From: Candidatus Yanofskybacteria bacterium RIFCSPLOWO2_02_FULL_41_13
Lineage (GTDB): Bacteria > Patescibacteriota > Minisyncoccia > 2-02-FULL-40-12 > GWA2-44-9
NCBI GenBank assembly: GCA_001795735.1
Contig: MGKQ01000014.1
Location: 5,625 to 58,691 of the forward strand
Direction of reading: 5' to 3'
DNA length: 53,067 nt
Each line of letters opens with the position of its first letter. Position 1 is the first letter of the stretch. Under the pieces are notes generated by a model. The model searched no databases. It was not told the DNA's origin and was given only the letters and a program-made list of their open reading frames with translations. Position numbers and translations under genes: made by a program. Below are positions 20,962-38,530 of the stretch, piece by piece.

Positions 20962-22557
20962 TTATATCGCGGGGTGGAGAAATGGCATCTTGCAGGGCTC
21001 ATAACCCTGAGTTCCGGGTTCGAATCCCGGCCCCGCAACTAAGTCAGACCCATTGCCTGAATATGCTTGAGAAAGCGTGAATACAGGCGACAAAACAGCG
21101 GTGCCAATAGTTTCTGTTTTTCTATCAAAGATAATACCCTTTGGTAGCACCAGACGTTGGAATCGCTGTTTTTGTTTTGGGTCCATATCCTGCCATTGCC
21201 TAGAGATATTGCGCATAAACTTTGTTGCATAAGTTATCGCAGTTTCCATATCATACCCGTCAAGCTTTGTTTCGTTAGACGATATTTGCACGCCTGTAAT
21301 TTTATTATCCAACTCGTCCTTTAGGCGGCTAAATTCCTCTTTACTAATCTCGCCACCAATTCGCAGGTCCAATAGGCGCTGTTTTTTATTTAGTAAACTA
21401 TTCAGCTCTTTTTCATAGACAGTATTTAATCTCTGACTGTTATCGTGTTCTTTTTTCCATACTTCAATAACGGCTGTCTCAAAAATATTTAAAAAATCAT
21501 TGGTGGGACTAATTTTTTTCAGAAATGCGACAAATATTTCCTCTAGCTTATCGCGTGATATATTCCGGTTATAGTTTTGACACCCCCGAGTGTTGCACCT
21601 ATAGTATGAGTACCGTTTACTCCTACCAGACTGCCAGCTGCCAGTATATTTACCTCCGCACGTACAGGATACAAGTCCCCTTAAAACAAAGTCTGGGTTT
21701 AATTTTAATCGGGGTTTAGTGGCATTATTAGACAAACCAGATTTATAAAATTGTATTTGATTATGTTCCTCTGGTGAGATTGCCGGCTGGTGAAGCCCTT
21801 GGTGCCCCTCACTTGTCCACGGATTTATTAGGATACCGGAATAATATTTGTCGCGAAGCATTTTCTCAACCAGTTGCTTGTATATAGGCCTACCTGTCCG
21901 CGTTTTTAGTCCCCACTCTTGAAATGCTCCCGTAAGCGTTGTAATGGTGTGCTCACCGCGCGCAAATGCTTTTAAGCCCCTCTGGATTAAATAGAAACGT
22001 TCAGGGTCTATTTCGTCAGGACTATTTTTCCGTCGGTCACTTAATTTTTTACCGTGAATATAGCCAATGGGTGGCTGCCAAGGCCAAATACCTTCGATTA
22101 TTTTTCGCTGCATACCACCCTCACACCTCATTTTTCTTACGTCGTTCTCGAATTGAGCAAAAGTCGCTAACATACCCTCCATTGCCTTACCAGTAGCCCC
22201 TATCCCTATCATTGGCTCCATTACGGAATATAAAACGGTGCCATATTTTAAAAGTTGTGCCTGAAGCGCATAATGGTCAATCATATTGCGAGAAAACCTG
22301 TCCAACTTAAATACAATAAAATAATTAATTTTATCTTTATGTTCGCAACAGTAGGCTAAAGCCTTCGTAAGCTCAGTTCTATTAGCCGCCGTTGCGCTTT
22401 CCCCCTCCTCAATAAAGACCCTATCAACAGAAATACCATTGCGTTCAGCATATTCCAAACAAGCGATTTTTTGACTGGCAAGACTTGTTCCCTTTACTTG
22501 GTCTTGTGACGAAACCCTACAATAAATTATTCCGCGTGTTTTCATTTTGCTATTCAA
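20962..22557 (-). CDS. Large serine recombinase (element 1)
   Basis: YCRVSSQDQ nucleophile motif, recombinase domain, Zn ribbon (CTCG...YRCNTRGC), coiled coil; last 23 aa are read from the antisense of tRNA-fMet. Confidence 0.93.
   Translation of the reverse strand: MNSKMKTRGIIYCRVSSQDQVKGTSLASQKIACLEYAERNGISVDRVFIEEGESATAANRTELTKALAYCCEHKDKINYFIVFKLDRFSRNMIDHYALQAQLLKYGTVLYSVMEPMIGIGATGKAMEGMLATFAQFENDVRKMRCEGGMQRKIIEGIWPWQPPIGYIHGKKLSDRRKNSPDEIDPERFYLIQRGLKAFARGEHTITTLTGAFQEWGLKTRTGRPIYKQLVEKMLRDKYYSGILINPWTSEGHQGLHQPAISPEEHNQIQFYKSGLSNNATKPRLKLNPDFVLRGLVSCTCGGKYTGSWQSGRSKRYSYYRCNTRGCQNYNRNISRDKLEEIFVAFLKKISPTNDFLNIFETAVIEVWKKEHDNSQRLNTVYEKELNSLLNKKQRLLDLRIGGEISKEEFSRLKDELDNKITGVQISSNETKLDGYDMETAITYATKFMRNISRQWQDMDPKQKQRFQRLVLPKGIIFDRKTETIGTAVLSPVFTLSQAYSGNGSDLVAGPGFEPGTQGYEPCKMPFLHPAI
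20968..21038 (+). tRNA. tRNA-fMet (CAT), initiator; integration target
   Basis: C1:A72 mismatch, anticodon stem CAGGG/CCCTG with three G:C pairs, loop CTCATAA, TTCGAAT; no encoded CCA. Confidence 0.95.
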
Positions 22558-22567
22558 TTTATCCTTT

Positions 22568-22702
22568 CTAATAACCGTTATCGCATTTAATTTCTAGTCC
22601 AAAGGGCGTAAAAAACTCTACCTCATTAAAATCTTTATCTCGGAATTGAAAGGTCGCAAAGCTAGTGGGCTCATTACTTTTAAGGTTATTTGAGCTTTCC
22701 AC
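22568..22702 (-). CDS. Possible 44-aa small ORF directly upstream of recombinase 1
   Basis: Manual: GTG...MESSNNLKSNEPTSFATFQFRDKDFNEVEFFTPFGLEIKCDNGY; stop is followed by AAGGA and the recombinase start. Confidence 0.3.
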   Translation of the reverse strand: MESSNNLKSNEPTSFATFQFRDKDFNEVEFFTPFGLEIKCDNGY

Positions 22703-22775
22703 GGATTTTTATAAATAAAAATCCAATACTGTTCTCACTTTATCTAGCTTTTTTACTGGGGCTATTTTGCACTGG

Positions 22776-23285
22776 TTATTTATATACTTTTATATCACCT
22801 AAAAACGACGTAACCTCGCCGACTTTTTCGTCAGAGTAAGCGTCTTTTACTTCAAAATGCTGGTAGCCAGTAATAGCTTTTTTAAGCGTGGCTATTTTTG
22901 CCATAAAGTCTTTTTTAAATGCAACGGTTTGGGTATACCACGTAGCACCTGCATATACTACGGACGCTCTGTCGGAAAACTCGTAAGAGATAACTAAACC
23001 AGCTCGTTTTGCTAAGTCCATTACCTCATTAAGTTCTTTTTGTGCTGCCTCTTTAGACATTGTTGGACTAGCTGTCGGGGTTGCTGTTGGCTGGGATACG
23101 GTGTTAACTGGCTGATTTTGGACTGGTGAGATATTTTTACTATCGTCTGTAGCAGCACCAATTATGCCAATAAAAATAGTCACGGCTATCGTTGTTACAG
23201 TAACCCTTTTTCTAAAGCTCCAGCTTTTGTATTTTTGAATCCACGACCCCAAGCCTGTACCTGACATTTGTGTTTGTTGTTCCAT
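22776..23285 (-). CDS. Hypothetical membrane-anchored protein
   Basis: TM, Pro/Thr linker, small globular domain. Confidence 0.75.
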   Translation of the reverse strand: MEQQTQMSGTGLGSWIQKYKSWSFRKRVTVTTIAVTIFIGIIGAATDDSKNISPVQNQPVNTVSQPTATPTASPTMSKEAAQKELNEVMDLAKRAGLVISYEFSDRASVVYAGATWYTQTVAFKKDFMAKIATLKKAITGYQHFEVKDAYSDEKVGEVTSFLGDIKVYK

Positions 23286-23344
23286 TTTTTTAAATTATTT
23301 TTTATTTTTATGTCGCTCGACCTAACGACATTACACTACTATTT

Positions 23345-23502
23345 GGGCGGGCTTATTTAAACACAAAACCCGCCACAGGTGCGCCTTGCGGCGCATACAG
23401 GCCTTTCGACCTGCAACGTTCGACACGCCCTATGACGGGGTTAATATGTCGAACGGTTTTTTGCCATACCCACAAGAAAAAACCTGTGGGGTTAGGCAAC
23501 TC
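23345..23502 (-). ncRNA. Candidate multi-stem structured RNA or leader
   Basis: Minus-strand stems CGTTCGACA/TGTCGAACG, CAGGTC-GAAA-GGCCTG, TGCGCC-GCAA-GGCGCA (GNRA loops), CCCACAGG/CTTGTGGG. Confidence 0.55.
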
Positions 23503-23673
23503 TAATTTGTAGTTATTATAGCACATTTTAGGGTTCAGAGGTTTTAAGATTAATATTTTGGTTAATTTTGGTATTTAAAATTGATAAAAAATGGCTAATT
23601 ACCTAACAAATATGTGTTTTGTTCCCCCGTTTTTTAGTAATTTACTCAAAGTAACCCATATAAAACCTCATTT

Positions 23674-24516
23674 TCACTGGATTAATCTTCGGATAATATT
23701 GTTTATGTAAGCAGCAGGGTTATCAATTTTTTCTTTTGTTTTTAGTTCGTCAAAATGCTTGTAAGCTTGCTCTATTACTTTTAAACCGTGTTTATCGAGA
23801 ACTGAAAGTAAAAACTTCATATCTTGTTCCTCAACCTCTTGTGCTATAAGCCAAATCCTTTCCTCGTCCTTATTTTGTGGGTAAAAGCCATTATTGGTTA
23901 AAAGATTACGATTATTTAGTTTATTAAAAGGCGGCTTTGCCGCTCTTAATATATCGTAAGATATATTAAGAGTATTATTATCTTTTTTCTTATGGGTATG
24001 AGTATCCGTATTGTAACCTCTGACTTGGTTGGGTTTGAAAGGAAAAGAAAACATAGATAAAATGTCGTCTTTTTGCTTTTCCAACTTGTGACTAGCGGCT
24101 TCAACTTCGGGTTTAACCTCTGACTGGTTTGGGCTGTTTGTACTGTCCTCACTCGTGACCATTTCGGGATTAAAATACTTATCCAATGTTCTGATAATAT
24201 TATTAGGCATTATAAAATCACCAAAGTTCACCTCAAACGAACCTTTGCTACCCTGGCGGTCTTGATACCATATCAACTTTTTACCCCGTAATGACAGTAA
24301 TAATTTGTTAACGTAGTTCCCGCTAACCTTTCCGCCAAAAACGTCATTATTTATATCGCTTATACTTGTCACGGCTACCCCGTAGGGACTGCAATTAAGC
24401 CGTAAGTGCAGATACATAAAATACTCATTGCGGCTTATAACTTTCTTACGATAGAGCGACAAAATATCTCTTTGAAAATTAATCCAATTTTTAATTTTAT
24501 TTGGGCTGCTGCTCAT
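23674..24516 (-). CDS. Replication-initiator-like protein (putative wHTH N-terminus)
   Basis: YFMYLHLRLNCSPYG...VNKLLLSLRGKKLIWY wHTH-like; C-terminal KIDNPAAYINNII as in Rep/DnaD-type tails. Function inferred. Confidence 0.55.
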   Translation of the reverse strand: MSSSPNKIKNWINFQRDILSLYRKKVISRNEYFMYLHLRLNCSPYGVAVTSISDINNDVFGGKVSGNYVNKLLLSLRGKKLIWYQDRQGSKGSFEVNFGDFIMPNNIIRTLDKYFNPEMVTSEDSTNSPNQSEVKPEVEAASHKLEKQKDDILSMFSFPFKPNQVRGYNTDTHTHKKKDNNTLNISYDILRAAKPPFNKLNNRNLLTNNGFYPQNKDEERIWLIAQEVEEQDMKFLLSVLDKHGLKVIEQAYKHFDELKTKEKIDNPAAYINNIIRRLIQ

Positions 24517-24673
24517 AATTTTTTATGTTTTTGGTATTTTTATCTACAGGATTTTTAAGCCGGTACTCCGAGATAAATTCAGCAAGCGCAAGACAAGCGT
24601 CATAAAGCTGCTTATTTTTTTCTTTTTCACCCGTTTTATCGTCTAGGGTTTTATTTAACTTTCTATTTCTCAA
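24497..24673 (-). CDS. Possible 58-aa ORF overlapping the Rep-like start
   Basis: Manual: TTG...MRNRKLNKTLDDKTGEKEKNKQLYDACLALAEFISEYRLKNP...QQPK. Confidence 0.4.
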   Translation of the reverse strand: MRNRKLNKTLDDKTGEKEKNKQLYDACLALAEFISEYRLKNPVDKNTKNIKNYEQQPK

Positions 24674-24740
24674 ATTTAAATACCCCCAAGCAGCAGCCCC
24701 GCCGTTTGAGGGTATTTAAATGGGGCTGCAAACTTGTTTT

Positions 24741-24811
24741 AAACAAAAAACCCAGGTGATAAACACATAAACGCACGCAAAAAACGCGTATTTATGTGTT
24801 TACTACCTGGG
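24741..24811 (-). terminator. Long hairpin with U-tract upstream of Rep-like operon (attenuator-like)
   Basis: Minus strand CCCAGGT-AG-TAAACACATAAA...TTTATGTGTTTA-TC-ACCTGGG then TTTTTTGTTT. Confidence 0.6.
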
Positions 24812-25076
24812 TACTTAGGCCGTTTTAGGCATTATTTTGCCAAAAGATTGGATTGACCCCTATTGAGTGCCGCTAGGTTCCGTACTAAGTGGTATATGAT
24901 AACGGGTTTTGGTTATTTCCGTGTTTATACATTAACTTCACCGTGGGCAACGTGCAGTAAAACACTAAGGTATTTTGTGCCCTTTGGGACGGGCAACTTT
25001 GTTAATACGCAGATAATAGCACCCTGGTTTTGTAAGTCAACTATTTTAAGATATAATTAAAGCTAACACAGCCCCA

Positions 25077-25982
25077 ATGGCAAATCTATTTTTTATATTA
25101 TTACTAGTCTCTTTTGCGTCTTTAGTCGCCGGTCTTGTTAAACCGTCTCTATTTACTCGCATAAAACTACCAACAAGAAAACTCGTTGGACTAGTTTTTG
25201 GTGGAATAATGTTTGTGTCCCTTATCGGTATTGGTGCTACTGCACCCTCAAAACCTGAAACTGAATTAAAAAATGAGCAGCCACAGACAACTGTAACTGC
25301 AGCGCCAACTACAAAGGCCGCCCCGCTAAATCAGCAAGATACTAACGAGCAAGCCGACTTGTTTTTAGTAACCCGAGTAATCGACGGCGATACAATTGAA
25401 ATTGAGGGTGGGCAACGAATTAGATATATCGGTATAGATACACCTGAAACTGTTGACCCAAGAAAGCCGGTTCAATGTTTTGGAGTTGAAGCGTCTAATA
25501 AAAATAAAGAGCTGGTTTTAAATAAAAAGGTACGCCTTGAAAAAGACGTTAGTGAAGCTGATAAATACGGACGCTTACTGCGCTACGTTTATATTGGAAA
25601 TACTTTTGTAAATCTTGAGCTTGTACAACAGGGCTATGCTTACGCTTCAAGCTATCCACCTGACATTAAGTACCAAAACCAATTTACTAGCGCCCAGAGC
25701 GAAGCCAGAGAGCAAAACAAAGGGCTTTGGGGTGGCTGTCCTGTTGTTACTCAAACGACCACACCAATAGCCACACCAACGTTTACACCGCAACAGACAC
25801 AGCCACCCTCGTCTTGCGATATTAAAGGCAATATAGCTTCAGACGGCGAGAAAATATATCACGTAATTGGTTGTGCCTCATATAACGTAACAAAAATAGA
25901 CGAAGCACGCGGCGAGCAATGGTTCTGCACCGAGCAGGAAGCAGTGACGGCTGGCTGGCGAAAAGCATATAATTGTCCGTAG
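25077..25982 (+). CDS. Thermonuclease (SNase) family secreted nuclease with C-terminal Cys/His metal-binding domain
   Basis: RVIDGDTI, RYIGIDTPE, DKYGRLLRYV, AREQNKGLW; CDIKGNI...IYH...C...WFCTEQEA..AGWRKA. Confidence 0.92.
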   Translation: MANLFFILLLVSFASLVAGLVKPSLFTRIKLPTRKLVGLVFGGIMFVSLIGIGATAPSKPETELKNEQPQTTVTAAPTTKAAPLNQQDTNEQADLFLVTRVIDGDTIEIEGGQRIRYIGIDTPETVDPRKPVQCFGVEASNKNKELVLNKKVRLEKDVSEADKYGRLLRYVYIGNTFVNLELVQQGYAYASSYPPDIKYQNQFTSAQSEAREQNKGLWGGCPVVTQTTTPIATPTFTPQQTQPPSSCDIKGNIASDGEKIYHVIGCASYNVTKIDEARGEQWFCTEQEAVTAGWRKAYNCP

Positions 25983-26073
25983 TATGAACTATTATTTAGA
26001 GCTGATTAATCTTACAAGGCCTGCCCTAAAATAGGTGTGCCCATAAACTCTGTAAACCTAATAATATCAGCTA

Positions 26074-27744
26074 TTATTTGGTGCCAACTGCGTAACACTT
26101 CCGCAACAGAGAAGGAGAAGCAGACACAAAAGTGTCTGTTTTTCTTGTAATAGAGCCATTACTTAGCGGTTCGAAAGTGTAATTATTGGCTTTTAGGTCT
26201 TCCGAGATTATTTGGAGTGGGAAAAGCACATTATCTAAGGAAATGCTCAGCTTTTTGTCTTTTAATATGAAGTTCGAACCTAAAACCGAAAGTATCTGTC
26301 TTTTCACTTGAAGATCCTTGGTTGTATCAAATTTCTTCTTAGCATTTTCGGCAAACCTAAATACATCCTCAGCTAGTTCGAGCCAGTGTTCAACTCTCTT
26401 CCCAATATTCTGCATCCCGTTCTCTAGGCGCTCTTTTTCTCTTAATGTCTCGGATTTCTTAGTCAGATACTCTTGTTCAGTTAGTTCTTTGGCAGCTCTC
26501 ATATCAATTAAACCATCCAGCTTTTTAAGACATAGGTCGTAAGCTCTTTCTTGAGTAGCTAAAATCTGACCGCGTTCTTCTGATTCTTTAGCATTTTCAG
26601 ATTTTAACCATTTCATCGCAAATTCGTGGAAATCAGTTGGTATTTCAATTTTTTCTATAATTGAAGCAACCTGCTCGTTTAGAACATGCTCCTGGATTGC
26701 GTGCTGAGTGCAGTTTCGATTTTTACTCTTAGTGCAACGATAAATAATATAGTGGTGGATCGTGCCATTTTTTTGTTTCTTATATTTATCCTCAATGGTT
26801 ATCTGGCTGGTACACTCCCCGCATTTTATTATCCCACCACCGTAAGTAAACATTTTATCTTTCCTTGGTTTGGCTTTTAGCTTACTTCCCAATAAGAATT
26901 GAACTCGATTAAAAGTTTCTTCGCCTATCATTGGTTCGTGAGATCCTTTATAAAAACTACCGCTGCCTCTCGGATATTCGAAATAGCCGTAATAAAAACT
27001 ATCGTTGAATATTTTATATAGCGTACTCATAGACATTGGGCGACCGCCCTGTCTTTTGGAAGCTCTACTTTTATAACCCCAATCGTCATTCATCATTTTT
27101 TGAATTCGCCTTACACTGTAAGTTCCCATCGCCATCAGCTCCCAAGCTTTTTTAATTAAATCAAATCTTTCTAAATCTTTTTTGATATATCTTGAACCAC
27201 CGGCTAATTCGGGAGTATTTAGATAACCTGCCGGAGCAACACCGGGCATAGAACCTCGTTCACATTTAGTGGTTAAACCTCTTTTAACAACTTTGCTTTT
27301 ATCATCTGAATCTTTTTTGGCTATACCAAACTCTAACTGTAAAAAGAATTTATCGTCAGATTCGTTATAGTAGGTTTTGGTTACTGTTTTTACTTCTTTG
27401 ACAGTGCCTTCGTCCATAGCAGTAATAATCCAACCACCATCAAAAGCATTCCGGGCCAAACGATTTCCATGCCAAGTTAAAATCGAATTTGCCTCTCCTC
27501 TCTCAAGTCCAGCCATCATAGTTCCAAATATTTTTCGGCCGCGAGTATGAGCTGATTTCTCTTCTCTAAAAATCTTAACGACATGGAGTCCTTGATCCTC
27601 GGCTAATCTCTTTAGCTCCTTTTCTTGAGATTCAATGGACTGCATTTGCCGCTCCTTATTATCCTCGGAACTCTTACGACAATACATGTAGTATTTAACC
27701 CTGTCAGTATTAGTATGTTTCATAAATTTGCTATATTTTACCAC
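26074..27744 (-). CDS. Large serine recombinase (element 2)
   Basis: YCRKSSED, RLARNAFDGG, GVAPAGYLN, Zn ribbon (CGEC...YRCTKSKNRNC), coiled coil. Confidence 0.93.
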   Translation of the reverse strand: MVKYSKFMKHTNTDRVKYYMYCRKSSEDNKERQMQSIESQEKELKRLAEDQGLHVVKIFREEKSAHTRGRKIFGTMMAGLERGEANSILTWHGNRLARNAFDGGWIITAMDEGTVKEVKTVTKTYYNESDDKFFLQLEFGIAKKDSDDKSKVVKRGLTTKCERGSMPGVAPAGYLNTPELAGGSRYIKKDLERFDLIKKAWELMAMGTYSVRRIQKMMNDDWGYKSRASKRQGGRPMSMSTLYKIFNDSFYYGYFEYPRGSGSFYKGSHEPMIGEETFNRVQFLLGSKLKAKPRKDKMFTYGGGIIKCGECTSQITIEDKYKKQKNGTIHHYIIYRCTKSKNRNCTQHAIQEHVLNEQVASIIEKIEIPTDFHEFAMKWLKSENAKESEERGQILATQERAYDLCLKKLDGLIDMRAAKELTEQEYLTKKSETLREKERLENGMQNIGKRVEHWLELAEDVFRFAENAKKKFDTTKDLQVKRQILSVLGSNFILKDKKLSISLDNVLFPLQIISEDLKANNYTFEPLSNGSITRKTDTFVSASPSLLRKCYAVGTK

Positions 27745-27795
27745 ATTTTGTGAGTAAAATATAGGATTAATTGATTTCTGCGAAACGAACCCATT

Positions 27796-29163: not shown

Positions 29164-29180
29164 TTTTCCTATGTTATTAG

Positions 29181-30622: not shown

Positions 30623-30723
30623 CGTCAGTGAGTACCGTCTCCAGTTCGGATCCTTGATAGCGGGGACTCACTGGAAGCCTTTCGCTACAAGAACCCGAAC
30701 TGATTACAAAGGCGGTCATTAGA

Positions 30724-31023: not shown

Positions 31024-31030
31024 TTCTATT

Positions 31031-31654
31031 TTAAATTCCGTTAAGAAATCTTACGGCGTCAGGAAATTTGAGACCGTTTAATTCCATAACGAAACTGATT
31101 GCGTCGCCTTTTTTGCCACATCCATAACAGTGAAAACGATTTTCAGGATAAACATAAAATGAAGGCGTTTTCTCATTATGAAAGGGGCATAAGGCAACTG
31201 ATTTATTTCCTAATTTTTTAAACTGCCCATTAACTACATTTTCTATTGGTGCTACCCTCGCTCTCTCTATATCTTCCTCGGTAAGCCGTCCTTTGGGGAC
31301 TCGACCTCGACTTACCGACTTTAATCGTTTCAACCGCTCAATATTCTGATTTATTTTTAATAACTCCGGACCATCAAATACCTTTACAATCTCCCGCCAG
31401 AACCATTGATTCTCTGGAGCTGATTTTTGGCTAATTACTGACAATTTTCTTTTTATAATGACGGCCACCCTATCTCCTTCTTCCTGCCATTCGGCAATCT
31501 TTTCTGGTATGATTTCTCGGGCTTCTGGAAATATGTTGAGTAGCTCACTATCCGAAAGTTTCGGCTGAACACTTCGCCATTGTTTTTCTAAATCCCAGGC
31601 ATAATTCAAAAAATCCAAATCAATATTTTCAGTTTTGTTTTGTATTTGGTTCAT
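31031..31654 (-). CDS. CHC2 zinc-finger (DnaG N-terminal-like) protein
   Basis: CPFHNEKTPSF...FHCYGCGKKGDAISFVMEL; no TOPRIM domain follows. ATG 31654 or GTG 31675. Confidence 0.88.
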   Translation of the reverse strand: MNQIQNKTENIDLDFLNYAWDLEKQWRSVQPKLSDSELLNIFPEAREIIPEKIAEWQEEGDRVAVIIKRKLSVISQKSAPENQWFWREIVKVFDGPELLKINQNIERLKRLKSVSRGRVPKGRLTEEDIERARVAPIENVVNGQFKKLGNKSVALCPFHNEKTPSFYVYPENRFHCYGCGKKGDAISFVMELNGLKFPDAVRFLNGI

Positions 31655-31805
31655 TTTCTTTTTGTTCTTTGCCACTAATGTAAACGGCTTTGTATAAATT
31701 CACTAAGTTATTGGCCCTTAGTGCCGCCTCTTCAACGGAAAGCTCAATGCCATAATGGCGAAGGTATAGTTCCCGGTATTCTTTTATGGCTTCTGGTGGT
31801 AACAT
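31629..31805 (-). CDS. 58-aa hypothetical protein (missed by ORF track)
   Basis: Manual: MLPPEAIKEYRELYLRHYGIELSVEEAALRANNLVNLYKAVY...; fills the gap and overlaps both neighbours' boundaries as in an operon. Confidence 0.7.
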   Translation of the reverse strand: MLPPEAIKEYRELYLRHYGIELSVEEAALRANNLVNLYKAVYISGKEQKENEPNTKQN

Positions 31806-31806
31806 T

Positions 31807-32082
31807 TTAAAAGTTATCTTGATAAAGTTTTTCCTTTAAAATCTTTATTGACTGGATTAGCTTCCTTGAATCGACCATCACCTCGGAATTATTTTCTCTG
31901 CCAAAATTAAAACTCTCCGTTAGCGTCATTCGCTCTGGAGAATCATTAAAGATAAATGCCGATCGTCTCGGATCAGTAATCTTATCGATATTTAGTAGCT
32001 CAATTCCTTTTGCAAATAGAAAAACCGCAAGATAAAAACTTGTGGTTCTGAAATGTTCTTTTTGATGTGGATCCTTATTCAT
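31807..32082 (-). CDS. DUF5659-like small protein
   Basis: FRTTSFYLAVFLFAKGIELLNID...RSAFIF; ATG 32082 preferred. Confidence 0.65.
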   Translation of the reverse strand: MNKDPHQKEHFRTTSFYLAVFLFAKGIELLNIDKITDPRRSAFIFNDSPERMTLTESFNFGRENNSEVMVDSRKLIQSIKILKEKLYQDNF

Positions 32083-32144
32083 ATGCTTATAGGGGCTGCC
32101 TCCCCTCAATACATAATGGGTCCACATCTGTCAGCTAAAACTAA

Positions 32145-32167
32145 AAGACCCCTTATTGGGGGGTCTT
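32145..32167 (-). terminator. Hairpin after the 501-aa gene
   Basis: AAGACCCC/GGGGTCTT stem followed on the minus strand by TTAGTTTT. Confidence 0.5.
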
Positions 32168-32185
32168 GGTCTTTATTAAATATTT

Positions 32186-33691
32186 TTATTTCCGGCGATA
32201 CTTGCTGCGTTTTTTAATTAGCTCTTGAGCTGAATTGAAATCGTCTTCTGTGTAACAACGATACAAACCAACTCTTCGGGGACTCAAGATCTTATTTAGG
32301 TCCCATCTTTTGAGAGTAGTCCTTGAAACTCCGGTCATAGTTATGAATGTATCTCTTTTCCAACCCACTTTTTCCCCATTTTTATCTTTTAGATCATAGG
32401 GTGACAATGTTCCTAGATTTTCATCTATATCTTTCTGTGATATGTCGTCGAAGCCAAACAGAGATGTGTTACTTTTATATTTGGATGTCCCTAGCCTTTT
32501 TGGATTTAGATCTTTTAAAGCTTCCTCACTAAATATAGATGAATCACCCTCATATTCCGAGCCTCCTAGCTTTTTGCGCATTAAATCTTTTAAAGCTCTT
32601 TCATAAAATGCGGTAAACGGATATTCGTCTGAATCTGTAACTAAACCCAACCGGGTTAATAATCCGCCGCGACCGATAAGAGAAAATAATTTAGGTTCGT
32701 GGAAATTTTTTTCAAGCTTTTTTGCAGATGCGTAGAAAAAATCGAAAGATTTTAATTTTGGTGCTATTTCTTGTTTTATCCACTCTGTCATTTCTGCCTT
32801 CTTATCTTCGCTAAAATACGTCCCCGATCGTTTCTCGTACTGATTAATACCCGATCTTAATAATGGCTCATACATCAAGAAAAGCTGTTCACGAAATGCC
32901 GGCCCCAATTTCGGATGGGGTAAGGGTTTAAAGAATGCCATGGCAACTATATAATTATTAACTTGCTGATATTCTTTGGTATTTTTTAGTTGAGAAAAGG
33001 TTTTATTATTAAACGGTAACTTTAAATATCGAAAATAATCATCCCACTGAAGTAGGGGTAAAACTTCAAATCCGTAGAAGCCATCTTGATATAAGCAAAG
33101 TCTTTTCCACTCTTCTTCGAATGATTTTTTGAATTTATCATCGGATTTAATGGTATATAGCTCAAGATGTTTTAGATTAAGAAAACTGAATGATACGTAT
33201 TGAAATTTATCTAAAAATGAAACAACAAAATCGGGATAACCCTCTTCTTTAACATACTCCTTACTGTTTATTTTTAATGTTTCGAGTAGGACTTTTAAGG
33301 TTAGCCTCTTTAATGTCTCCTCGTCATTGCTTAAATATACACGCCAATATTCTAAATTTTTTAATATTTTAGATTCGAGACCGGGAATTAATATATCCAA
33401 TAAAAACGTTAAGACCTCCTCTCCCGGTCTTTTTATTATCTCCTCTCGCAAATTATAAAAATCCTCATCATCTAATGAGTAGCCGGGAGCTGGTTTTTGG
33501 CTCAAGATCCATTTTTTATAAATTTTAAGGAGGGCGGGGTGTAATTTAAGATATTCGACATACTCCTCCTCAAATACTGGTGTCACAGTAAAACTATCTA
33601 GCGCTATATTTCTAGTTCTACTGCTCAGACAATCGCGAACAGACTCCTCCCGTAGGGCCTGATAAAAAGGTTTTGTATTCTTATTTTCCAT
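32186..33691 (-). CDS. 501-aa protein with C-terminal MerR/excisionase-like HTH
   Basis: C-terminal MTGVSRTTLKRWDLNKILSPRRVGLYRCYTEDD. Confidence 0.7.
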   Translation of the reverse strand: MENKNTKPFYQALREESVRDCLSSRTRNIALDSFTVTPVFEEEYVEYLKLHPALLKIYKKWILSQKPAPGYSLDDEDFYNLREEIIKRPGEEVLTFLLDILIPGLESKILKNLEYWRVYLSNDEETLKRLTLKVLLETLKINSKEYVKEEGYPDFVVSFLDKFQYVSFSFLNLKHLELYTIKSDDKFKKSFEEEWKRLCLYQDGFYGFEVLPLLQWDDYFRYLKLPFNNKTFSQLKNTKEYQQVNNYIVAMAFFKPLPHPKLGPAFREQLFLMYEPLLRSGINQYEKRSGTYFSEDKKAEMTEWIKQEIAPKLKSFDFFYASAKKLEKNFHEPKLFSLIGRGGLLTRLGLVTDSDEYPFTAFYERALKDLMRKKLGGSEYEGDSSIFSEEALKDLNPKRLGTSKYKSNTSLFGFDDISQKDIDENLGTLSPYDLKDKNGEKVGWKRDTFITMTGVSRTTLKRWDLNKILSPRRVGLYRCYTEDDFNSAQELIKKRSKYRRK

Positions 33692-33742
33692 TCTTATTTT
33701 TACTGAAAGTAGCTTAATTTAAGCATTTTCTCAAGACCTATC

Positions 33743-33764
33743 AGCACGACAGAAACTCCGAATG
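33743..33764 (+). repeat. 22-bp motif, direct-repeat copy A
   Basis: AGCACGACAGAAACTCCGAATG, identical to 38217-38238. Confidence 0.95.
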
Positions 33765-33822
33765 TTGCCTATAGCTCGGAAATGTATTACCCTATATCCA
33801 GCATTATTAACAAGGAGCTGTC

Positions 33823-34221
33823 ATGGCCGATCACGTAGAAAAAGATAGCTATTTCCAAAGATTACTAAAATCCTATCTGGATTATCGTCCTGGAAGCGAA
33901 CGAGAACTCGCCGATGAGTTTAGGACGGCGGTTGGTACCATAACCAGATGGGCAAATGGACATTCTCGTCCTGCTCAAAAAGCAGAACAAGCAATCGTCT
34001 CAGCTCTTCAGGAGAAAATATACCGAGAATTACAAGATACATTAATTAATCATCTTATGGATAATAACGACCACCTTACAGTTGATTTTGCATCGGAACT
34101 TGCTTCTGAGTTTGAAGTAGCTAAATCGACAGTAAGGCGTTGGGCAAACGGAACGGCTCGTCCACATCCGCGACTTGCCCTGATGATTATTGGATATGTG
34201 AAAAATAGGGAGACAAAGTAG
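33823..34221 (+). CDS. Tandem XRE-like HTH protein
   Basis: Two repeats: ELADEFRTAVGTITRWANGHSRP and ELASEFEVAKSTVRRWANGTARP; SD AAGGAG. Confidence 0.75.
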   Translation: MADHVEKDSYFQRLLKSYLDYRPGSERELADEFRTAVGTITRWANGHSRPAQKAEQAIVSALQEKIYRELQDTLINHLMDNNDHLTVDFASELASEFEVAKSTVRRWANGTARPHPRLALMIIGYVKNRETK

Positions 34222-34223
34222 TC

Positions 34224-34508
34224 ATGACCATCAAATCAATTCCTCGTTCTGCTCCAAAGCAGATGCTTCCAGGTCTGAAGTTATCCGACTTAGTCCAATT
34301 ACGGACTGCCGATTATTCTCAAGACAAAAGAGATGCGTCAACAAAATATCTGCCAGCCAATACAGTCGGTAAAGTCAAAAATATTTACGACATGGGAGGA
34401 CTAAAACGACATCTGAGGCATCATCGTTTCCTAATCTATCTCCGAATTCCCGGACATCCTGAAACCAATTTCTGGTCTGAAGAATTAACCAAAGTGAGAG
34501 TACGATAA
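34224..34508 (+). CDS. Hypothetical protein
   Basis: Operonic spacing with neighbours. Confidence 0.55.
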   Translation: MTIKSIPRSAPKQMLPGLKLSDLVQLRTADYSQDKRDASTKYLPANTVGKVKNIYDMGGLKRHLRHHRFLIYLRIPGHPETNFWSEELTKVRVR

Positions 34509-34690
34509 TGAGTTTATCTAAAGGACCCGGTTTCTTTCTTCGATTAGAGGAACGACTTGAAGAAAAAGAACCGCCCAAACCGACATGCTGCAAAATTACT
34601 GATCCATGTGTTGAGTCGTGTGTGGATGACTGGATAGAATGGGAAAGATATCAATCTAATTTATCAAGGGGAGAAGATAAAAATGTTTGA
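34508..34690 (+). CDS. Small hypothetical protein
   Basis: Stop/start overlap with both neighbours. Confidence 0.4.
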   Translation: MSLSKGPGFFLRLEERLEEKEPPKPTCCKITDPCVESCVDDWIEWERYQSNLSRGEDKNV

Positions 34691-34868
34691 CCTGATAATT
34701 GTTTGGGTTGGCATAATTCTAAAAATTATTTACGCATTAATGCTATCAGTTGTAATCTATAGCCTGCAGTGGATTATATATCCTCTTCGTCTCCTAACCG
34801 CACAATGTCTGGGGAATGATTTTCCTCATGCACCAGTATACCCACCGAAATGCTCCCAGATTCTATAA
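34683..34868 (+). CDS. Small hydrophobic hypothetical protein
   Basis: One long TM; overlaps previous stop. Confidence 0.4.
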   Translation: MFDLIIVWVGIILKIIYALMLSVVIYSLQWIIYPLRLLTAQCLGNDFPHAPVYPPKCSQIL

Positions 34869-34971
34869 GGAGTCTAATGAAGCAGCCGACTGATCGTCGG
34901 TTTTTTGTTGAAATAAAAGAGCCCCGGCAGAGGTCGTGCATTCTACACGGGGCTCTCTGTCGGGGCTTACT

Positions 34972-35721
34972 TCACCACTTCACCATAAATGGTGGCGGGA
35001 TATTCACGAGGCTCAATCGAGCGGCTTCGAGGAAGCCGAGAATTGCTCCAAAGTGACTCAGGTTGGCTTCCGAAGGAAGCCTGTGTCCTCTCAGCTTGAG
35101 CATATGTTGGATCATGGGTTGGCTGAGGTGATTCTCTCGACCCTCCTCCACGATGCCACGGAACATACAACCAAGCATAGCCTGAATGCACCTGACCTCT
35201 TCGAAAACGTCGAAGCCACGTTTCGATCTCCCTGGATTTACTTCGAGCTCTCGTTGAAGTGTATCTTTCATCCAGCGTACCGCATGAATGGCCAACCGAT
35301 CACTTGCGGCGGCGACGATCTTTCTGGCTATGTGATCCTGATAGCCGACGGCTCGTAAATGGTCGATAACGGCAGGATGGAGGTATTTCCGTTGGCCGTC
35401 CTCTTTGTCATTCTTGAGCAGTTGGTACCAATGAGCCGCACCAAGAATTGCGTCACGCATTCCCCAGTGGCTAGGATCGTAGTCGCTGATCAGATCCTTG
35501 AGCTCATCACGAAGTTCTGTCGGAAGCTGGGCGAGAAAATCCTCGTCCGAGAGTTCCGACAAATGCTTACGAAGCCCACCCTTTAGAAGTGGCTGACTGA
35601 TGATCATTTCCACGATCCTCAGATCAGTCAAATCCTGACGAGTGGGGGTGTATGGATTTGCCAGAGTGGATACTGGCACCTCCAGGGACCGAATTATTGC
35701 TTCGATTGTGTACTGAAACAT
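34972..35721 (-). CDS. Hypothetical protein (249 aa), GC-rich
   Basis: SD GGAGG upstream; consensus promoter at 35926-35954 on the minus strand. Confidence 0.75.
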   Translation of the reverse strand: MFQYTIEAIIRSLEVPVSTLANPYTPTRQDLTDLRIVEMIISQPLLKGGLRKHLSELSDEDFLAQLPTELRDELKDLISDYDPSHWGMRDAILGAAHWYQLLKNDKEDGQRKYLHPAVIDHLRAVGYQDHIARKIVAAASDRLAIHAVRWMKDTLQRELEVNPGRSKRGFDVFEEVRCIQAMLGCMFRGIVEEGRENHLSQPMIQHMLKLRGHRLPSEANLSHFGAILGFLEAARLSLVNIPPPFMVKW

Positions 35722-35925
35722 GACTTTCCTCCTGGTCCAACCGCTGGACCACTTGCATGTCAGGATCCTACTATCCGTGACGGTTTGTGCGGTTTGTGTT
35801 CTCTGCGAAGTAGGTCGCTGAGAGGGAGGAAAGAAAGGTCTTCTCCCTACAAAATACTCACATTGGATATAAGGACTTTGCAGGAAGAAGACTAGATATT
35901 ATGTTAAAAAGCAGTGTGTTTCTAT

Positions 35926-35977
35926 ATTATACCAAAAAATCACTACTATTGCAAGGGGTATAAAAATATGGTATAAT
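35926..35977. promoter_or_regulatory. Symmetric bidirectional sigma70 promoter sharing one -35 hexamer
   Basis: Palindromic TTGCAA (35949-35954) with TGG-TATAAT 17 bp away on both strands (35972-35977 plus; 35931-35926 minus). Confidence 0.8.
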
Positions 35978-36024
35978 ATCGGGGTAGTTGGGATTTCCCC
36001 AACCTACACTCAGGAGGTATCTCG

Positions 36025-36471
36025 ATGAGTACCTTAACAGAAAAGATTCGACAGGCAGTTGCGGAGATGAAAGATCGTCGGTACGGCGTGAAGGGCGAGA
36101 TTGTTTTCGTGTTCAAACCACCGCTGGAGAACCCCGATCTGGATGCACTTCGAAGTTCCATCAAGGAAGTCGACAAGCTCTTTCCCTGGAAAGAGGACGA
36201 TGTTCCCGATGGAGCCGAGAAGCCACCGAGTATCTTTTATCTCGGTAATGGCCAGGTGGTCGTTCACAACTTCCATCCGAAGGAACAGCACATCTGGTTC
36301 TCGGTCCATCCTCGATACGATTCGATGCGACGAGGTCAGATCTATGCATACGAAAAGTATCTCGCCAAGTTGGCGGAAGAGTTGATGAAGCCGAAGCAGA
36401 ACAACTACTGGCCGGCCTCGGTCAGGAGTGTGATCACGATTAAAGCGGTAACCAGTTTCAAGGCCTTTTAG
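36025..36471 (+). CDS. Hypothetical protein (148 aa)
   Basis: SD AGGAGGT; downstream of consensus promoter. Confidence 0.75.
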   Translation: MSTLTEKIRQAVAEMKDRRYGVKGEIVFVFKPPLENPDLDALRSSIKEVDKLFPWKEDDVPDGAEKPPSIFYLGNGQVVVHNFHPKEQHIWFSVHPRYDSMRRGQIYAYEKYLAKLAEELMKPKQNNYWPASVRSVITIKAVTSFKAF

Positions 36472-36488
36472 GTCAGGAGGAGCGAACA

Positions 36489-36998
36489 ATGAAGACACCA
36501 TGGCTCATTCAGCGTTGCGAACTTGGCAACGGGAAACTCAAGTACGACTACATGGGTTCCACGGAGTTTGAGGTCGGTGACCAATCAAAGTCCCTCAAGC
36601 GAATCTTCGCCCAAGGGATCGAGACAGGTGTAACGACGATCAATGTCGAATCGGCGCAGACCACGTTAAGCGCGGGCGGTGGCATGACATCGCAGTCAAC
36701 CTATCGTCAGTTCGCCGACGTCCGTGTCTATATGGTGGCCGGCAAGGGATTCAATTTCGCCGACTACCAGACCTATCTGCAGCAGCTCGCAGACCACAAG
36801 TTGCGTCTGCAGGAAGGGACCTATTTCGATTACAGGGTCAAGGCACAAGTGGGCAACAAGCCTGAACTTCGTTCCTTCTCGCTGACCAACGCCTGGTTCG
36901 ATTTCCAGAACGATGTCCTCTGGACCCTTACGGAGGACGACCAGAAAAACCTCCTCTCGGTCCTCGAGGATATCAAGCAGACCTGGGCGTCGAAGTAG
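36489..36998 (+). CDS. Hypothetical protein with DYMGSxEFE motif
   Basis: SD AGGAGG; YDYMGSTEFEVG. Confidence 0.75.
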   Translation: MKTPWLIQRCELGNGKLKYDYMGSTEFEVGDQSKSLKRIFAQGIETGVTTINVESAQTTLSAGGGMTSQSTYRQFADVRVYMVAGKGFNFADYQTYLQQLADHKLRLQEGTYFDYRVKAQVGNKPELRSFSLTNAWFDFQNDVLWTLTEDDQKNLLSVLEDIKQTWASK

Positions 36999-37012
36999 TA
37001 AGCGGTAGTTAA

Positions 37013-37067
37013 AAGCTCCGCACAGAGAAGTTCCAAACTTCGTCTTGTGCGGAGCTTCTTTGTTTTT
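37013..37067 (+). terminator. Intrinsic terminator
   Basis: AAGCTCCGCACA/TGTGCGGAGCTT stem followed by CTTTGTTTTT. Confidence 0.75.
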
Positions 37068-37111
37068 ATTATCTGTTCAATTTACCTAATTTCTGTTAAT
37101 TTCTAATAATT

Positions 37112-37570
37112 ATGAGTAATTCAAAACAAAAATTAATCGAACTTCAAAAAGAGGACAAATATTTATTCCATGGTTCACCAGCTAAAGATATAAAGGAGTT
37201 GGAGCCTCGTCAGTCATATACTATTCCAAAAGGTAAAACAGAGCCAATTAAAGATGGGCCGTCATCAGTATCAGCCACTCCTTATTTAGAGGTGGCAATT
37301 TTTAGGGCAATAGTAGTTAATGGCAGGAGCAGTTTTAGCGTGTCGGCGAATACAATAGAAGATGCTGTAATAAAATTTACTGCTAACCAAGAGGCAATCG
37401 AGGATGCTAAAAATAGAACGAGCTATATATATGTTTTGGATAGAAAAGATTTTACACCGAGAACCGGTAATGCTCATGCTATGGAATGGATATGTGAAAA
37501 CCCGGTAAAACCTATTTCAGTTTTTGAAGTTAATTTCAGCGATCTCTCTAGCGAGATTGAAATTATATAA
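37112..37570 (+). CDS. Putative ADP-ribosyltransferase-fold protein
   Basis: YLFHGS...ELEPR...VSATPYLEVA...YIYVL pattern resembling H-G-S/T ART-fold proteins; inference. Confidence 0.5.
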   Translation: MSNSKQKLIELQKEDKYLFHGSPAKDIKELEPRQSYTIPKGKTEPIKDGPSSVSATPYLEVAIFRAIVVNGRSSFSVSANTIEDAVIKFTANQEAIEDAKNRTSYIYVLDRKDFTPRTGNAHAMEWICENPVKPISVFEVNFSDLSSEIEII

Positions 37571-38239
37571 ATGATTACAAAAGAAGAATTTTACGAACGC
37601 TATGTAAATCATTGGATGAGGAGCGATATTAACTCCATGCGAAATCATGGTAATAATTTCCCCTTGGCTCTATGTACCCTTTCATATATAGAATTCTTAG
37701 GAAGTATTCTTACGGGCAATGGAAAACTCTATAGAGATAATGTAAAAAAATATATAGATGAATGCTTTAATAAGAAAGATTATGACATAAACATACTTTG
37801 GGACGTATTTAGAAATGGACTAGCTCATGACTATTTTCCAAGGGGAGGAGTAAGTAAGGAGGGTCCTGGTCCTATGCTTAAAATTGATAACAAAATGGTA
37901 TTGAATATTATGGATTTTTCGAAAGAATTCTTAGATTCATTAGATCAATTTAAAATCACTTTAGACAAGGAAGAAAATATAAAAAACTTTGGTGCCAGAA
38001 TAAAAGAAATGACGGATCGGACAGCAGAACTTGAGACAGATCATTTACATAAATTAACCGAGTTTATTTTTCCTGTACAAGCAAGAGACTCGACTGGGTC
38101 TATTTTTACCGAAATCGCTCCTTCATCGGGTCCAACTAAACTCGTCTCTCAAACTATTGCAGGTTATCCTATGGCCATTTCCGCTTTAGATAATGGCGTA
38201 GTAATAAAAGAACAGGAGCACGACAGAAACTCCGAATGA
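37571..38239 (+). CDS. Putative HEPN-domain protein
   Basis: Helical protein with FRNGLAH (RxxxxH); abuts previous ORF (TAA|ATG). Confidence 0.6.
   Translation: MITKEEFYERYVNHWMRSDINSMRNHGNNFPLALCTLSYIEFLGSILTGNGKLYRDNVKKYIDECFNKKDYDINILWDVFRNGLAHDYFPRGGVSKEGPGPMLKIDNKMVLNIMDFSKEFLDSLDQFKITLDKEENIKNFGARIKEMTDRTAELETDHLHKLTEFIFPVQARDSTGSIFTEIAPSSGPTKLVSQTIAGYPMAISALDNGVVIKEQEHDRNSE
38217..38238 (+). repeat. 22-bp motif, direct-repeat copy B
   Basis: AGCACGACAGAAACTCCGAATG; forms the last codons of the HEPN-like ORF. Confidence 0.95.
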
Positions 38240-38316
38240 CGTTACCAAGTCCTAACAAATTGAAATGGCCAATAGCCGGAAACTGCCATAATTGCGGAAT
38301 GTAAGTCCTTCAACCC

Positions 38317-38482
38317 CCGCAACAGAGTAGGGCTAATGGACGAGAAGTCGCCCGTTTGTCTTTTGCCAGTGCGGTTTTTTGACAGGTCCCAACCGACCAT
38401 TACTAGATTTCGACTCTTTTACAATGGTTTGAACCGGGAATATCACGTTATCCAAGTCCAACGTGAGTTTCTTATAGAAAAA
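38317..38482 (-). pseudogene. C-terminal remnant of a third serine recombinase
   Basis: Manual: KKLTLDLDNVIFPVQTI...LGPVK[+1 frameshift in A6]NRTGKRQTGDFSSISPTLLR, matching recombinase 2 KKLSISLDNVLFPLQII...FEPLS...TDTFVSASPSLLR; crosses the third core. Confidence 0.85.
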
Positions 38483-38530
38483 GAAAAAGGGACCTGACCC
38501 CTTTTATTTTTCGATAAAAAATGTTGACTG

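Follow-up and report, generated by a model that had tools for sequence, protein, structure and literature searches.

Site-specific elements mobilized by serine recombinases are described in reviews as inserting within protein genes, which they disrupt, whereas tRNA genes are regarded as the domain of tyrosine integrases (PMC5704250, PMC10484663). Integration of serine recombinases into tRNA genes has been called 'rare' by Ghinet et al., who cite phiRSM1 and report eight recombinases of Mycobacterium AICEs (actinomycete elements that are integrative and conjugative) at one tRNA-Leu (PMC3218068). The integrase (Int) of phiRSM1/3 is a serine recombinase of the small resolvase/invertase type that integrates at tRNA-Ser (PMC4471427). 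The present analysis concerns a stretch of 53,067 nucleotides of contig MGKQ01000014.1 from Candidatus Yanofskybacteria bacterium RIFCSPLOWO2_02_FULL_41_13 (hereafter the window), in which large serine recombinase genes follow an initiator tRNA-Met gene (tRNA-fMet). It is very probable that three elements integrated there serially and site-specifically at tRNA-fMet, by means of large serine integrases. The initial annotation of this DNA, which already proposed serial integration at one attB, held tRNA targeting to be classically a tyrosine-integrase trait; this is fair as a rule and is not absolute, as the rare serine cases of phiRSM1 and the Mycobacterium AICEs illustrate (PMC3218068).

The two intact recombinases of the locus, SR1 and SR2, can be compared with several groups of enzymes. 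The phage large serine integrases (A118/LI, phiC31, Bxb1, SPbeta) are alike in their catalytic, recombinase and zinc-ribbon domains, and also in their short att sites with a small identity block and a motif that lies 5 bp further out in attP. They target the interior of protein genes, whereas the SR1 and SR2 families target the 3′ end of tRNAs, and the systems of SR1 and SR2 would further differ by the use of the T-loop as shared distal motif, by an attP within the integrase open reading frame (ORF) and by the reuse of occupied sites. The islands and prophages that tyrosine integrases insert at tRNA genes, including tandem arrays (SXT/R391, phage-ICE (integrative and conjugative element)), are similar in that integration takes place at the tRNA 3′ end and restores the tRNA, in that the int gene stands beside the tRNA and in that accretion is head-to-tail. 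Their identity block measures tens of bp, whereas here it is 5-9 bp, arm-type sites are not expected and no tyrosine recombinase (PF00589) is encoded by the 19 ORFs of at least 94 aa scanned between 20.9 and 38.5 kb. In contrast to phiRSM Int, with its 13-bp core, its ∼200 aa and its C-terminal helix-turn-helix (HTH), SR1 (531 aa) and SR2 (556 aa) possess recombinase and zinc-ribbon domains. The Mycobacterium AICE group, compared by description, involves one tRNA and one genus, whereas here two families and at least 15 tRNA species are concerned. A literature search found no account of the SR1 and SR2 clades, which is not proof of novelty; large integrase surveys may list such cases uncommented. 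The features on which the argument rests are as follows.

20962-22557, minus strand: SR1, large serine recombinase of 531 aa (Pfam, PHROG 95 and PDB matches)
20968-21039, plus strand: initiator tRNA-Met(CAT), B arm of the attachment site (ARAGORN; Rfam tRNA, 59.3 bits)
21017-21024, plus strand: T-loop GGTTCGAA, proposed zinc-ribbon-domain (ZD) motif with attB-type spacing, starting 23 nt from the core end
21033-21039, plus strand: core 1, CCGCAAC, tRNA nt 68-74, with the crossover predicted inside GCAAC
21040-26107: element 1, 5.07 kb, comprising SR1, a 169-aa ORF, a LOOT RNA, a 280-aa protein, a nuclease, the P1 arm and core 2
26074-27744, minus strand: SR2, large serine recombinase of 556 aa (Pfam, PHROG 95, alignment A1)
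26080-26107, plus strand: right end of element 1, P1 arm GGTGCCAActgcgtaacactt with core 2 and a GGTNC motif 28 nt from the core end
26101-26107, plus strand: core 2, CCGCAAC, right end of element 1
26108-38323: element 2, 12.2 kb, from SR2 through the P2 arm with core 3
38296-38323, plus strand: right end of element 2, P2 arm GGAATGTAAGTCCTTCAACCC with core 3
38317-38323, plus strand: core 3, CCGCAAC, right end of element 2
38324-38476, minus strand: relic of a third, SR2-type recombinase, about 55 C-terminal codons with one frameshift, KKLTLDLDNVIFPVQTIVKESKSSNGRLGPV and GKRQTGDFSSISPTLLRG (tblastn, hidden Markov model (HMM) A1)
38477-38612, minus strand: host DNA resumes with an A-rich stretch and a terminator-like hairpin (as suggested by reading), then tRNA-Ser(CGA) at 38530-38612

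By domain architecture, SR1 and SR2 are full-length large serine recombinases with their catalytic motifs in place. Pfam identifies Resolvase (PF00239, 2.6e-27) and Zn_ribbon_recom (PF13408, 3.7e-9) in SR1, and Resolvase (PF00239, 1.7e-16), Recombinase (1.5e-7) and the zinc ribbon (1.5e-7) in SR2. The Recombinase domain (PF07508) scores 32.1 bits in SR2, above the cut-off of 21.1, and 17.4 bits in SR1, under that cut-off. The zinc ribbon PF13408 reaches 37.3 and 32.2 bits in the two recombinases against a cut-off of 25.3, and its Cys columns are invariant in alignments A1 (SR2 family) and A2 (SR1 family). Both proteins match the integrases of PHROG 95 (5.9e-72 for SR1, 1.3e-51 for SR2), and residues 201-430 of SR1 align, up to residue 430, with the C-terminal domain of the A118 integrase (PDB 4kis/6dnw). 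The catalytic residues R14, S16 and D86-R87..R90 of SR1 are invariant in alignment A2; SR2 has R23/S25, according to sequence reading and alignment with SR1, and its R95/R98 are invariant in alignment A1. SR1 and SR2 are assigned to two families because the identity between them is merely 23%. The relic is related to SR2 (45% identity over 31 aa by tblastn, E 8e-6), and HMM A1 of the SR2 family matches it in two pieces, 484-523 of the profile (E 7e-4) and 515-541 (E 0.33), which are collinear and one frameshift apart; its second piece, GKRQTGDFSSISPTLLRG, is nearer to the family consensus RKTDDFSSVSPTLLRG than the C-terminus of SR2 itself.

The tRNA gene shows on direct reading the hallmarks of an initiator, namely a C1xA72 mismatch and a GGG/CCC anticodon stem of three G-C pairs; CCA is not encoded. 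The three copies of CCGCAAC lie at the positions given in the initial annotation, and ARAGORN and Rfam both place the first at the 3′ end of tRNA-Met(CAT). The bare heptamer does not exceed chance, with seven copies in the window against 3.4 expected and with 5 of 100 shuffles attaining seven, and its significance lies in position and flanks. The reported likeness of the continuations of cores 2 and 3, AGAGAAGG and AGAGTAGG, is real; translated, this DNA gives ..SP(S/T)LLR, with which SR2-type proteins end in conserved form. At core 3 the match to the tRNA extends to 9 bp (CCCCGCAAC). The shared block measures 7-9 bp. The earlier remark that only 7 bp are shared raises no difficulty, since serine integrases require only a 2-bp crossover; long flanking direct repeats were looked for and none was found.

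It had also been claimed that a leftward gene of a large serine recombinase has its 3′ end immediately to the right of each core, intact, intact and remnant. This holds for the three genes, but the ORFs do not stop at the cores, as both SR1 and SR2 read across them. The conserved part of SR1 ends in ..GSDLVA, and its final 25 codons are the antisense strand of the tRNA, with the stop at 20962 (..GSDL is followed by VAGPGFEPGTQGYEPCKMPFLHPAI and the stop codon). The conserved part of SR2 ends in ..SPSLLR, and its last eight codons (KCYAVGTK, then the stop at 26074) come from the P arm of element 1. Before the arrival of element 1, SR2 would have read ..SPSLLRGRDSNPELRVMS.. into tRNA-fMet, as in the family consensus.

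Such entry into tRNA genes is common among relatives of both recombinases. A database search returned 1187 SR2 homologues at E <= 1e-10; 80 SR2-family loci were fetched, almost all from metagenome-assembled genomes (MAGs) of Patescibacteria, giving 78 evaluable genes; 74 genes were counted for the SR1 family, and tRNAs were called by ARAGORN. An opposite-strand tRNA gene is found at the ORF 3′ end in 88 of these 152 relatives, which belong to other genomes, mostly of Patescibacteria. In the SR2 family, the tRNA lies at or overlaps the ORF 3′ end in 48/78 cases, the targets being Asn (15), Gln (13), Ser (6), Trp and His (3 each) and, with one case each, Lys, Asp, Glu, Leu, Ala, Phe, Met and Gly tRNAs. 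In the SR1 family, the count is 40/74. SR1 relatives with at least 50% identity are nearly all at tRNA-Met(CAT), with the junction CCCCGCAAC followed by AAGTYCRGAC (in the window, CCCCGCAAC followed by TAAGTCAGAC), and more distant ones are at Ala, Glu, Leu, Lys, Arg and Tyr tRNAs. Close relatives of both SR1 and SR2 occur at tRNA-fMet with the same core, and other genomes have tRNA genes occupied by one element of either type on its own. Taken at the level of sequence, two large serine-integrase families appear to target at least 15 tRNA species in Patescibacteria and some other phyla.

The tails of the relatives reflect this location. SR2 homologues share the C-terminal ..SPTLLRG, after which many continue with xDSNPRPxGYEPxELPLLYPAI, which is antisense tRNA in translation: GGTTCGAATCC yields DSNP, and the CAU anticodon loop CTCATAA yields GYEP. 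The cores of the window fall on the codons at which relatives meet the tRNA, V507-A508 in SR1 and L547-R548 in SR2. These observations bear on the possibility that the three copies of CCGCAAC coincide by chance and that the recombinases, being invertases or resolvases, have nothing to do with the tRNA. The lack of enrichment of the 7-mer in the window would fit such a coincidence, but 88 of 152 relatives abut a tRNA gene, whereas, of 853 other long ORFs in these 160 loci, only 4 stop at such a tRNA; the coincidence of the cores with the family junction codons, the fixed offsets of the P-arm motifs (see below) and the domain architecture of large serine integrases all make it scarcely credible.

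In six further loci (L105, L108, L111, L122, L123 and L163; loci are designated by L numbers), SR1-family genes enter a T-arm and acceptor end at tRNA-type spacing with no ARAGORN call, the anticodon region being for example GGTTATGCATACC. These sites could be broken, unusual or relic half-tRNAs.

The composition of the three junctions conforms to serial integration. Junction J1 consists of the tRNA (B arm), the core and the SR1 3′ end (P1′); J2 of an SR1-family P arm, the core and the SR2 3′ end (P2′); and J3 of an SR2-family P arm, the core and the relic 3′ end (P3′). Each P arm thus comes from the element on the left and each P′ arm from the element on the right of the core, as serial integration predicts.

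The assignment of the P arms relies on relatives whose ORFs do not enter a tRNA. Their tails are also conserved, as ..V(x)6 SWNQ(I/L)(I/V)xE(L/I).. in the SR1 family and ..LLRxLN(D/E)VRT(Y/F).. in the SR2 family, and read as DNA they give GGTTCCAAC and GGTTCTAAC, respectively, which are mimics of the T-loop. To measure the offset of this motif, nucleotides were counted from the anchor codon to GAACC (GGTTC in reverse complement). In the SR1 family it lies at +18 nt in 32/41 tRNA junctions and at +23 nt in 13/25 non-tRNA junctions; in the SR2 family it lies at +14 nt in 24/28 tRNA junctions and at +19 nt in 5/19 non-tRNA junctions. Position-weight consensus strings show an identical shift of 5 bp. 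The window follows the same rule, as the tRNA motif GGTTCGAA starts 23 nt from the core end (21017), while the motifs left of core 2, GGTGCCAA, and of core 3, GGAATGTA, begin 28 nt from it (26080 and 38296, respectively). At core 2, the flank matches the SR1-type P-arm motif GGTTCCAA at 7 of 8 positions and at the fixed offset. At core 3, the flank translates in the SR2 frame as LLRGLKDLHS.., the inner part of which is like the P-type tails of the family (LKDLHS versus LNDVRT).

In serine integrases, the ZD motif occupies attP positions 16-24 and lies 5 bp nearer the centre in attB (Rutherford et al. 2013, PMC3783163). The 5-bp offset between tRNAs and P arms therefore appears to be this known site geometry. 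If the centre is placed at CA, P arms have the motif at positions 25-18 and tRNAs have it at 20-13, which is near the values of A118. Comparable attR-like sites, made of GGTTCCAA at -28 and [CT]GCAAC, are present 6-10 kb from tRNA-fMet in eight other loci, seven of the SR1 family (L116, L118, L121, L104, L162, L119 and L110) and one of the SR2 family (L094). Their cores are as short as TGCAAC and their downstream flanks are A-rich; by our own estimate, motif scores of 7-8/8 at the fixed offset are expected ∼0.002 times per locus.

A copy of GGTTCGAA also lies within SR2 itself (26169-26176, plus strand), about 60 nt inside the gene, where this T-loop-like sequence encodes the conserved FEP/LEP motif (the 'LEPL/FEPL' column of alignment A1). 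It could result from chance, from protein constraint or from an older tRNA junction of which it would be a trace; a tRNA-derived origin was considered and left unproven, the distance of ∼60 nt from the core being beyond any plausible half-site.

The position of the crossover can be narrowed by comparing junctions. In the stack of locus L022, the tRNA-side junction reads CCCCCGCAAC followed by AAGG and the far junction ..TGTCGCAAC followed by AGAG; they differ by C/T just to the left of CGCAAC, and the crossover must be sought on the right of this difference. The divergence of J1 and J2 of the window right after ..CAAC places it inside GCAAC. A dyad-symmetry scan of SR1-type P+P′ junctions centres on CA (tRNA nt 71-72), and this would most likely be the crossover dinucleotide.

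The comparison with empty tRNA-fMet sites that had been suggested as a check gives a concordant result. Two other Patescibacteria genomes (L191 and L192) have the same tRNA-fMet 3′ half with no recombinase downstream; these sites read ..CCCCGCAAC followed by ATAAGTAAATAAAAGGCACCC.. (GCAAC followed by ATAAGTAAAT), then a terminator, and they part from the window exactly after ..GCAAC. The natural downstream flank of these sites is A-rich and has no mirror of the T-loop motif, and the attR-like flanks are alike. A symmetric ZD motif in the natural B′ flank was considered and dropped, as only 3/8 positions match, and B′ looks unspecific. A syntenic empty locus was also sought through the relatives of TypA, the closest of which are Parcubacteria/Minisyncoccia MAGs with 75-80% identity and place the host within the Patescibacteria; these relatives keep no tRNA-fMet downstream.

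Two observations were made in passing on the DNA downstream of the unoccupied tRNA-fMet genes. L191 has a second copy of the last 15 nt of the tRNA (CCCGGCCCCCGCAAC) ∼230 bp downstream, at 3340-3354, and a stretch GGGATTCGAAAGSCGGAGC is common to L191 (∼3445-3465), where it lies between copies, and to L192 (∼3993-4013). The repeat and this stretch may be the scar of an earlier occupant.

Stacks of recombinase genes recur in at least nine other loci. With 10 kb of flank examined per locus, stacks of at least two genes in the same orientation that end at a tRNA are found in L022, L032, L054, L068, L073, L077 and L140, with spacings of 7-9 kb; L148 (two recombinase genes) and L050 (three) have the same orientation with no tRNA called adjacent. 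The window itself has the composition of a tandem array, with elements in the same orientation, their own integrases, att-type junctions and a tRNA at one end. The proposal of serial integration at one attB is thus supported by the composition of the junctions, by the association of both families with tRNAs and by the unoccupied sites.

The order of arrival has to be considered separately, as junction composition by itself cannot separate proximal from distal accretion. The newest element would be the one next to the tRNA, because the tRNA is the sole B-type arm in any stack, because the outermost unit is the most decayed and because SR2, not SR1, is broken in a variant strain; mechanism and decay gradient point in the same direction. 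This strain variant (L188) is 99.86% identical to the window and has SR2 and the gene of the 280-aa protein each split into two ORFs (at approximately window positions 26650 and 24174-24183, respectively), while SR1 is intact. Alternatively, newcomers could have entered the distal junction of the resident element, in which case element 1 would be the oldest intact unit. The junctions P1+P2′ and P2+P3′ would be identical under this order, and the T-loop-like motif of the P arms might act as a target. However, that motif stands at attP-type spacing and attP does not synapse with attP-like sites (PMC3783163); moreover, the tRNA is the only B-type arm in all stacks seen, the most decayed unit lies furthest from the tRNA and the variant strain has lost the integrity of SR2 rather than SR1. 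The reversed order is therefore considered improbable, and accretion next to the tRNA is retained.

Population data bear on whether the array is a recent product of such accretion. Near-identical contigs occur in many aquifer metagenome samples, including MGJR01000025.1 (GCA_001794375.1), and exact-protein look-ups retrieved the same array in every contig read (23 via TypA and 23 via the SNase gene). This uniformity over many samples, together with the lack of any sign of circles or empty sites, is what would be expected if the array had come as one composite block or were now a fixed island with inactive, fossil att-like sites. Yet the junctions keep intact family-typical arms, the catalytic motifs of both recombinases are intact, and lone elements of each type sit at tRNA genes elsewhere; a composite block, besides, must still have been assembled somewhere by the same serial process. 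Such an origin is very improbable, and elements 1 and 2, which would have arrived separately by serial integration, may be mobile at present.

Several points nevertheless weigh against serial integration as reconstructed here. Among the 23+23 population contigs, no excised circle, empty site or other arrangement was found, and a metagenome scan for the tRNA-P2′ or attP2 junction (CCGCAACAGAGAAGGAGAAGC) returned one unrelated GC-rich chance hit, in a collection evidently without the source contig. The unoccupied sites of L191 and L192 belong to other genera and are not syntenic loci. The array has no complete attR against host DNA, since its distal end (P3 arm and B′) is deleted. In its outer part (GGAAT), the P2 arm has diverged and matches GGTTC poorly. 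The margin of the dyad-symmetry scan is weak (0.33 versus 0.31 for the next-best position), and in the SR2 family, for which only five P-type junctions were available, the symmetry search gave no usable crossover centre. Finally, attL is not a substrate of canonical serine integrases, and for this reason integration at an occupied site needs the assumption that B′ is loosely specified or that the incoming enzyme is heterologous.

The following scheme is proposed. The 17.5 kb from tRNA-fMet to the tRNA-Ser cluster would be an accretion array of three elements, each with its own integrase and each directed to the same tRNA 3′ end. In each element, the integrase gene would lie at the left end, facing the tRNA, with attP inside its 3′ end. 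Integration would join the conserved end of the gene (P′ arm) to the tRNA (B arm) by a 2-bp exchange within GCAAC, and the tRNA bases past the crossover would be replaced by identical bases of the element, so that the tRNA stays intact. The enzyme would read the universal T-loop GGTTCGAA as its ZD motif, and the P arm at the far end of the element would carry a T-loop mimic, GGTNC(C/T)AA, at a distance from the crossover that is greater by 5 bp. Of the two halves of attB, only that of the tRNA would be well specified, because the natural downstream flank is A-rich and not conserved; consequently, an occupied site made of the tRNA and a resident P′ would still look like attB to a newcomer of different specificity. 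Newcomers would enter beside the tRNA and push older elements outward, the relic having arrived first, element 2 (12.2 kb) second and element 1 (5.1 kb) last.

Each integration would also exchange the C-terminal tail of the integrase. A circle simulated in silico by fusing SR1 at core 1 with the reverse-complemented DNA left of core 2 adds VAEVLRSWHQIIADIIRFTEFMGTPILGQAL and a stop codon to SR1. The tail obtained in this way from P1′ and the reverse-complemented P1 arm, VAEVLRSWHQIIADIIRFTEF, was aligned without gaps to the tails of 16 SR1-family members (for example VAEVRSHWNQIIQDIRNISAL and VAEVRSHWNQIIQDIRNISALVAEQ, the latter ending in a stop) and follows the pattern SW[NH]Q[IL][IV]x[DE][IL]xx[WF]xx[LF]. 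The two ends of element 1 thus appear to belong together. The conserved excised-form tail reaches past any plausible half-site and has a helix-like periodicity, which is read as selection on the excised-form protein. In the excised form, SR1 would carry a conserved helix-like tail, ..SWHQIIADIIRF.. (..VAEVLRSWHQIIADIIRF..), and in the integrated form the translation of the antisense tRNA, ..VAGPGFEPGTQGYEP...

Comparable arrangements are known in other systems. In the intP/intX system of Myxococcus phage Mx8 at tRNA-Asp and in the integration-dependent immunity of mycobacteriophages, attP lies in the 3′ end of a phage gene, so that integration changes the product and the C-termini of the integrated and excised forms differ. 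These cases concern tyrosine integrases and the consequence is documented, whereas here it is suggested only by the conservation of the excised tail. A tentative, rather doubtful extension would make SR1 and SR2 representatives of large undescribed clades of serine integrases, mostly of Patescibacteria, combining T-loop recognition with retargeting among at least 15 tRNA species by mere change of the short core, a tail swap that switches activity or directionality, and occupied sites that remain receptive and so give rise to stacks; to the same tentative whole belongs the idea that the excised-form tail of the SR1 family is a conserved amphipathic helix.

What would be new is the combination of canonical large-serine-recombinase chemistry and geometry at tRNA ends with an attP inside the int ORF and the reuse of occupied sites. 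Two big families of serine integrases would act like tRNA-targeting integrases, yet with the canonical site geometry of serine integrases. The recognition model offered is one in which the T-loop would be the ZD motif, the 5-bp shift would discriminate attP from attB and the short core would provide tRNA specificity. It would account for the frequency with which recombinase ORFs run into tRNA genes in Patescibacteria. For these bacteria, whose mobile elements are poorly known, it would define a family of small integrative elements with a DUF5659 protein, a winged-helix protein, an integrase and often a LOOT RNA. Integrases with a conserved attB at tRNA ends and with apparently easily shifted specificity could also be of use as landing-pad-free bacterial tools.

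Besides the recombinases and the att arms, elements 1 and 2 contain the following features.

23380-23498, minus strand: LOOT RNA (Rfam RF03000; 84.8 bits, gathering score 46.4)
23674-24516, minus strand: 280-aa protein bearing a winged helix at its N-terminus; in both families it accompanies the recombinase gene as a conserved partner
25077-25982, plus strand: staphylococcal-type (SNase-like) nuclease with an N-terminal hydrophobic segment, predicted secreted cargo (Pfam SNase 9.9e-28; PHROG nuclease 2.9e-39)
27796-28701, 28703-29116, 29207-30622 and 30724-31023: ORFs of element 2
31031-31675: CHC2 primase zinc-finger protein, element 2
31807-32127, minus strand: DUF5659 protein, element 2
32186-33691: 501-aa ORF, element 2
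33823-34221: repressor-like HTH protein, element 2
37112-37570 and 37571-38239: ORFs near the right end of element 2

Beyond the relic, which ends at ∼38476, element 3 is otherwise lost, as is the original B′ arm. On its right the array is bounded by an opposite-strand cluster of five tRNA genes (Ser, Arg, Lys, Leu and Met, 38530-39374, minus strand), and four further tRNA genes follow within 5 kb (41087-43701); none of the nine has a recombinase beside it.

Several ORFs of element 2 have no match at all. A GC-rich block at 34500-37000 (49-53% G+C versus ∼39% for the element and the genome) has ORFs of 249, 148 and 169 aa that match nothing in Pfam or PHROG and lack homologues among the fetched loci; by its appearance, the block entered element 2 as a separate acquisition. 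Four copies of a 22-nt motif, AGCACGACAGAAACTCCGAATG, with at most three mismatches, are present, all within element 2, versus none expected: 29179-29200 (plus), 29233-29254 (minus), 33743-33764 (plus) and 38217-38238 (plus). One copy falls between the 501-aa ORF and the HTH gene, in their divergent promoter region, two form an inverted pair at the 3′ end of the 471-aa ORF and another copy is ∼80 bp from the right end of element 2. The motif could be an operator or an iteron.

LOOT RNA is also present in 6/7 of the SR1-type tRNA-fMet elements of other genomes (L162 7595-7715, L104 7147-7264, L119 8204-8320, L109 5999-6120, L116 6845-6960 and L121 7724-7840); with respect to the integrase gene, it is oriented differently in the window than in these other loci. 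This orphan RNA motif appears to be a component of the present family of integrative elements. In at least 12 loci, which include both families, a homologue of the 280-aa winged-helix protein has its gene directly upstream of that of the recombinase, usually with DUF5659 ahead (L129, L134, L155, L142, L127, L125 and others, at ∼8-9.8 kb). DUF5659, the winged-helix protein and the recombinase constitute a conserved three-gene module, and both elements belong to one broad class of small integrative elements. The winged-helix protein could be a replication initiator, a recombination directionality factor (RDF) or a regulator; assignment of a role by fold search gave just a generic winged helix (E 0.03-0.1), and no RDF was identified.

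A prophage identity of elements 1 and 2 was dropped, as PHROGs gave no virion genes in either. Genes of SR1-like recombinases are found, however, at the extreme ends of predicted viral IMG/VR contigs of 38-53 kb (L193, L194, L197 and L198), and some relatives are probably the integrases of full-size (pro)phages of Patescibacteria.

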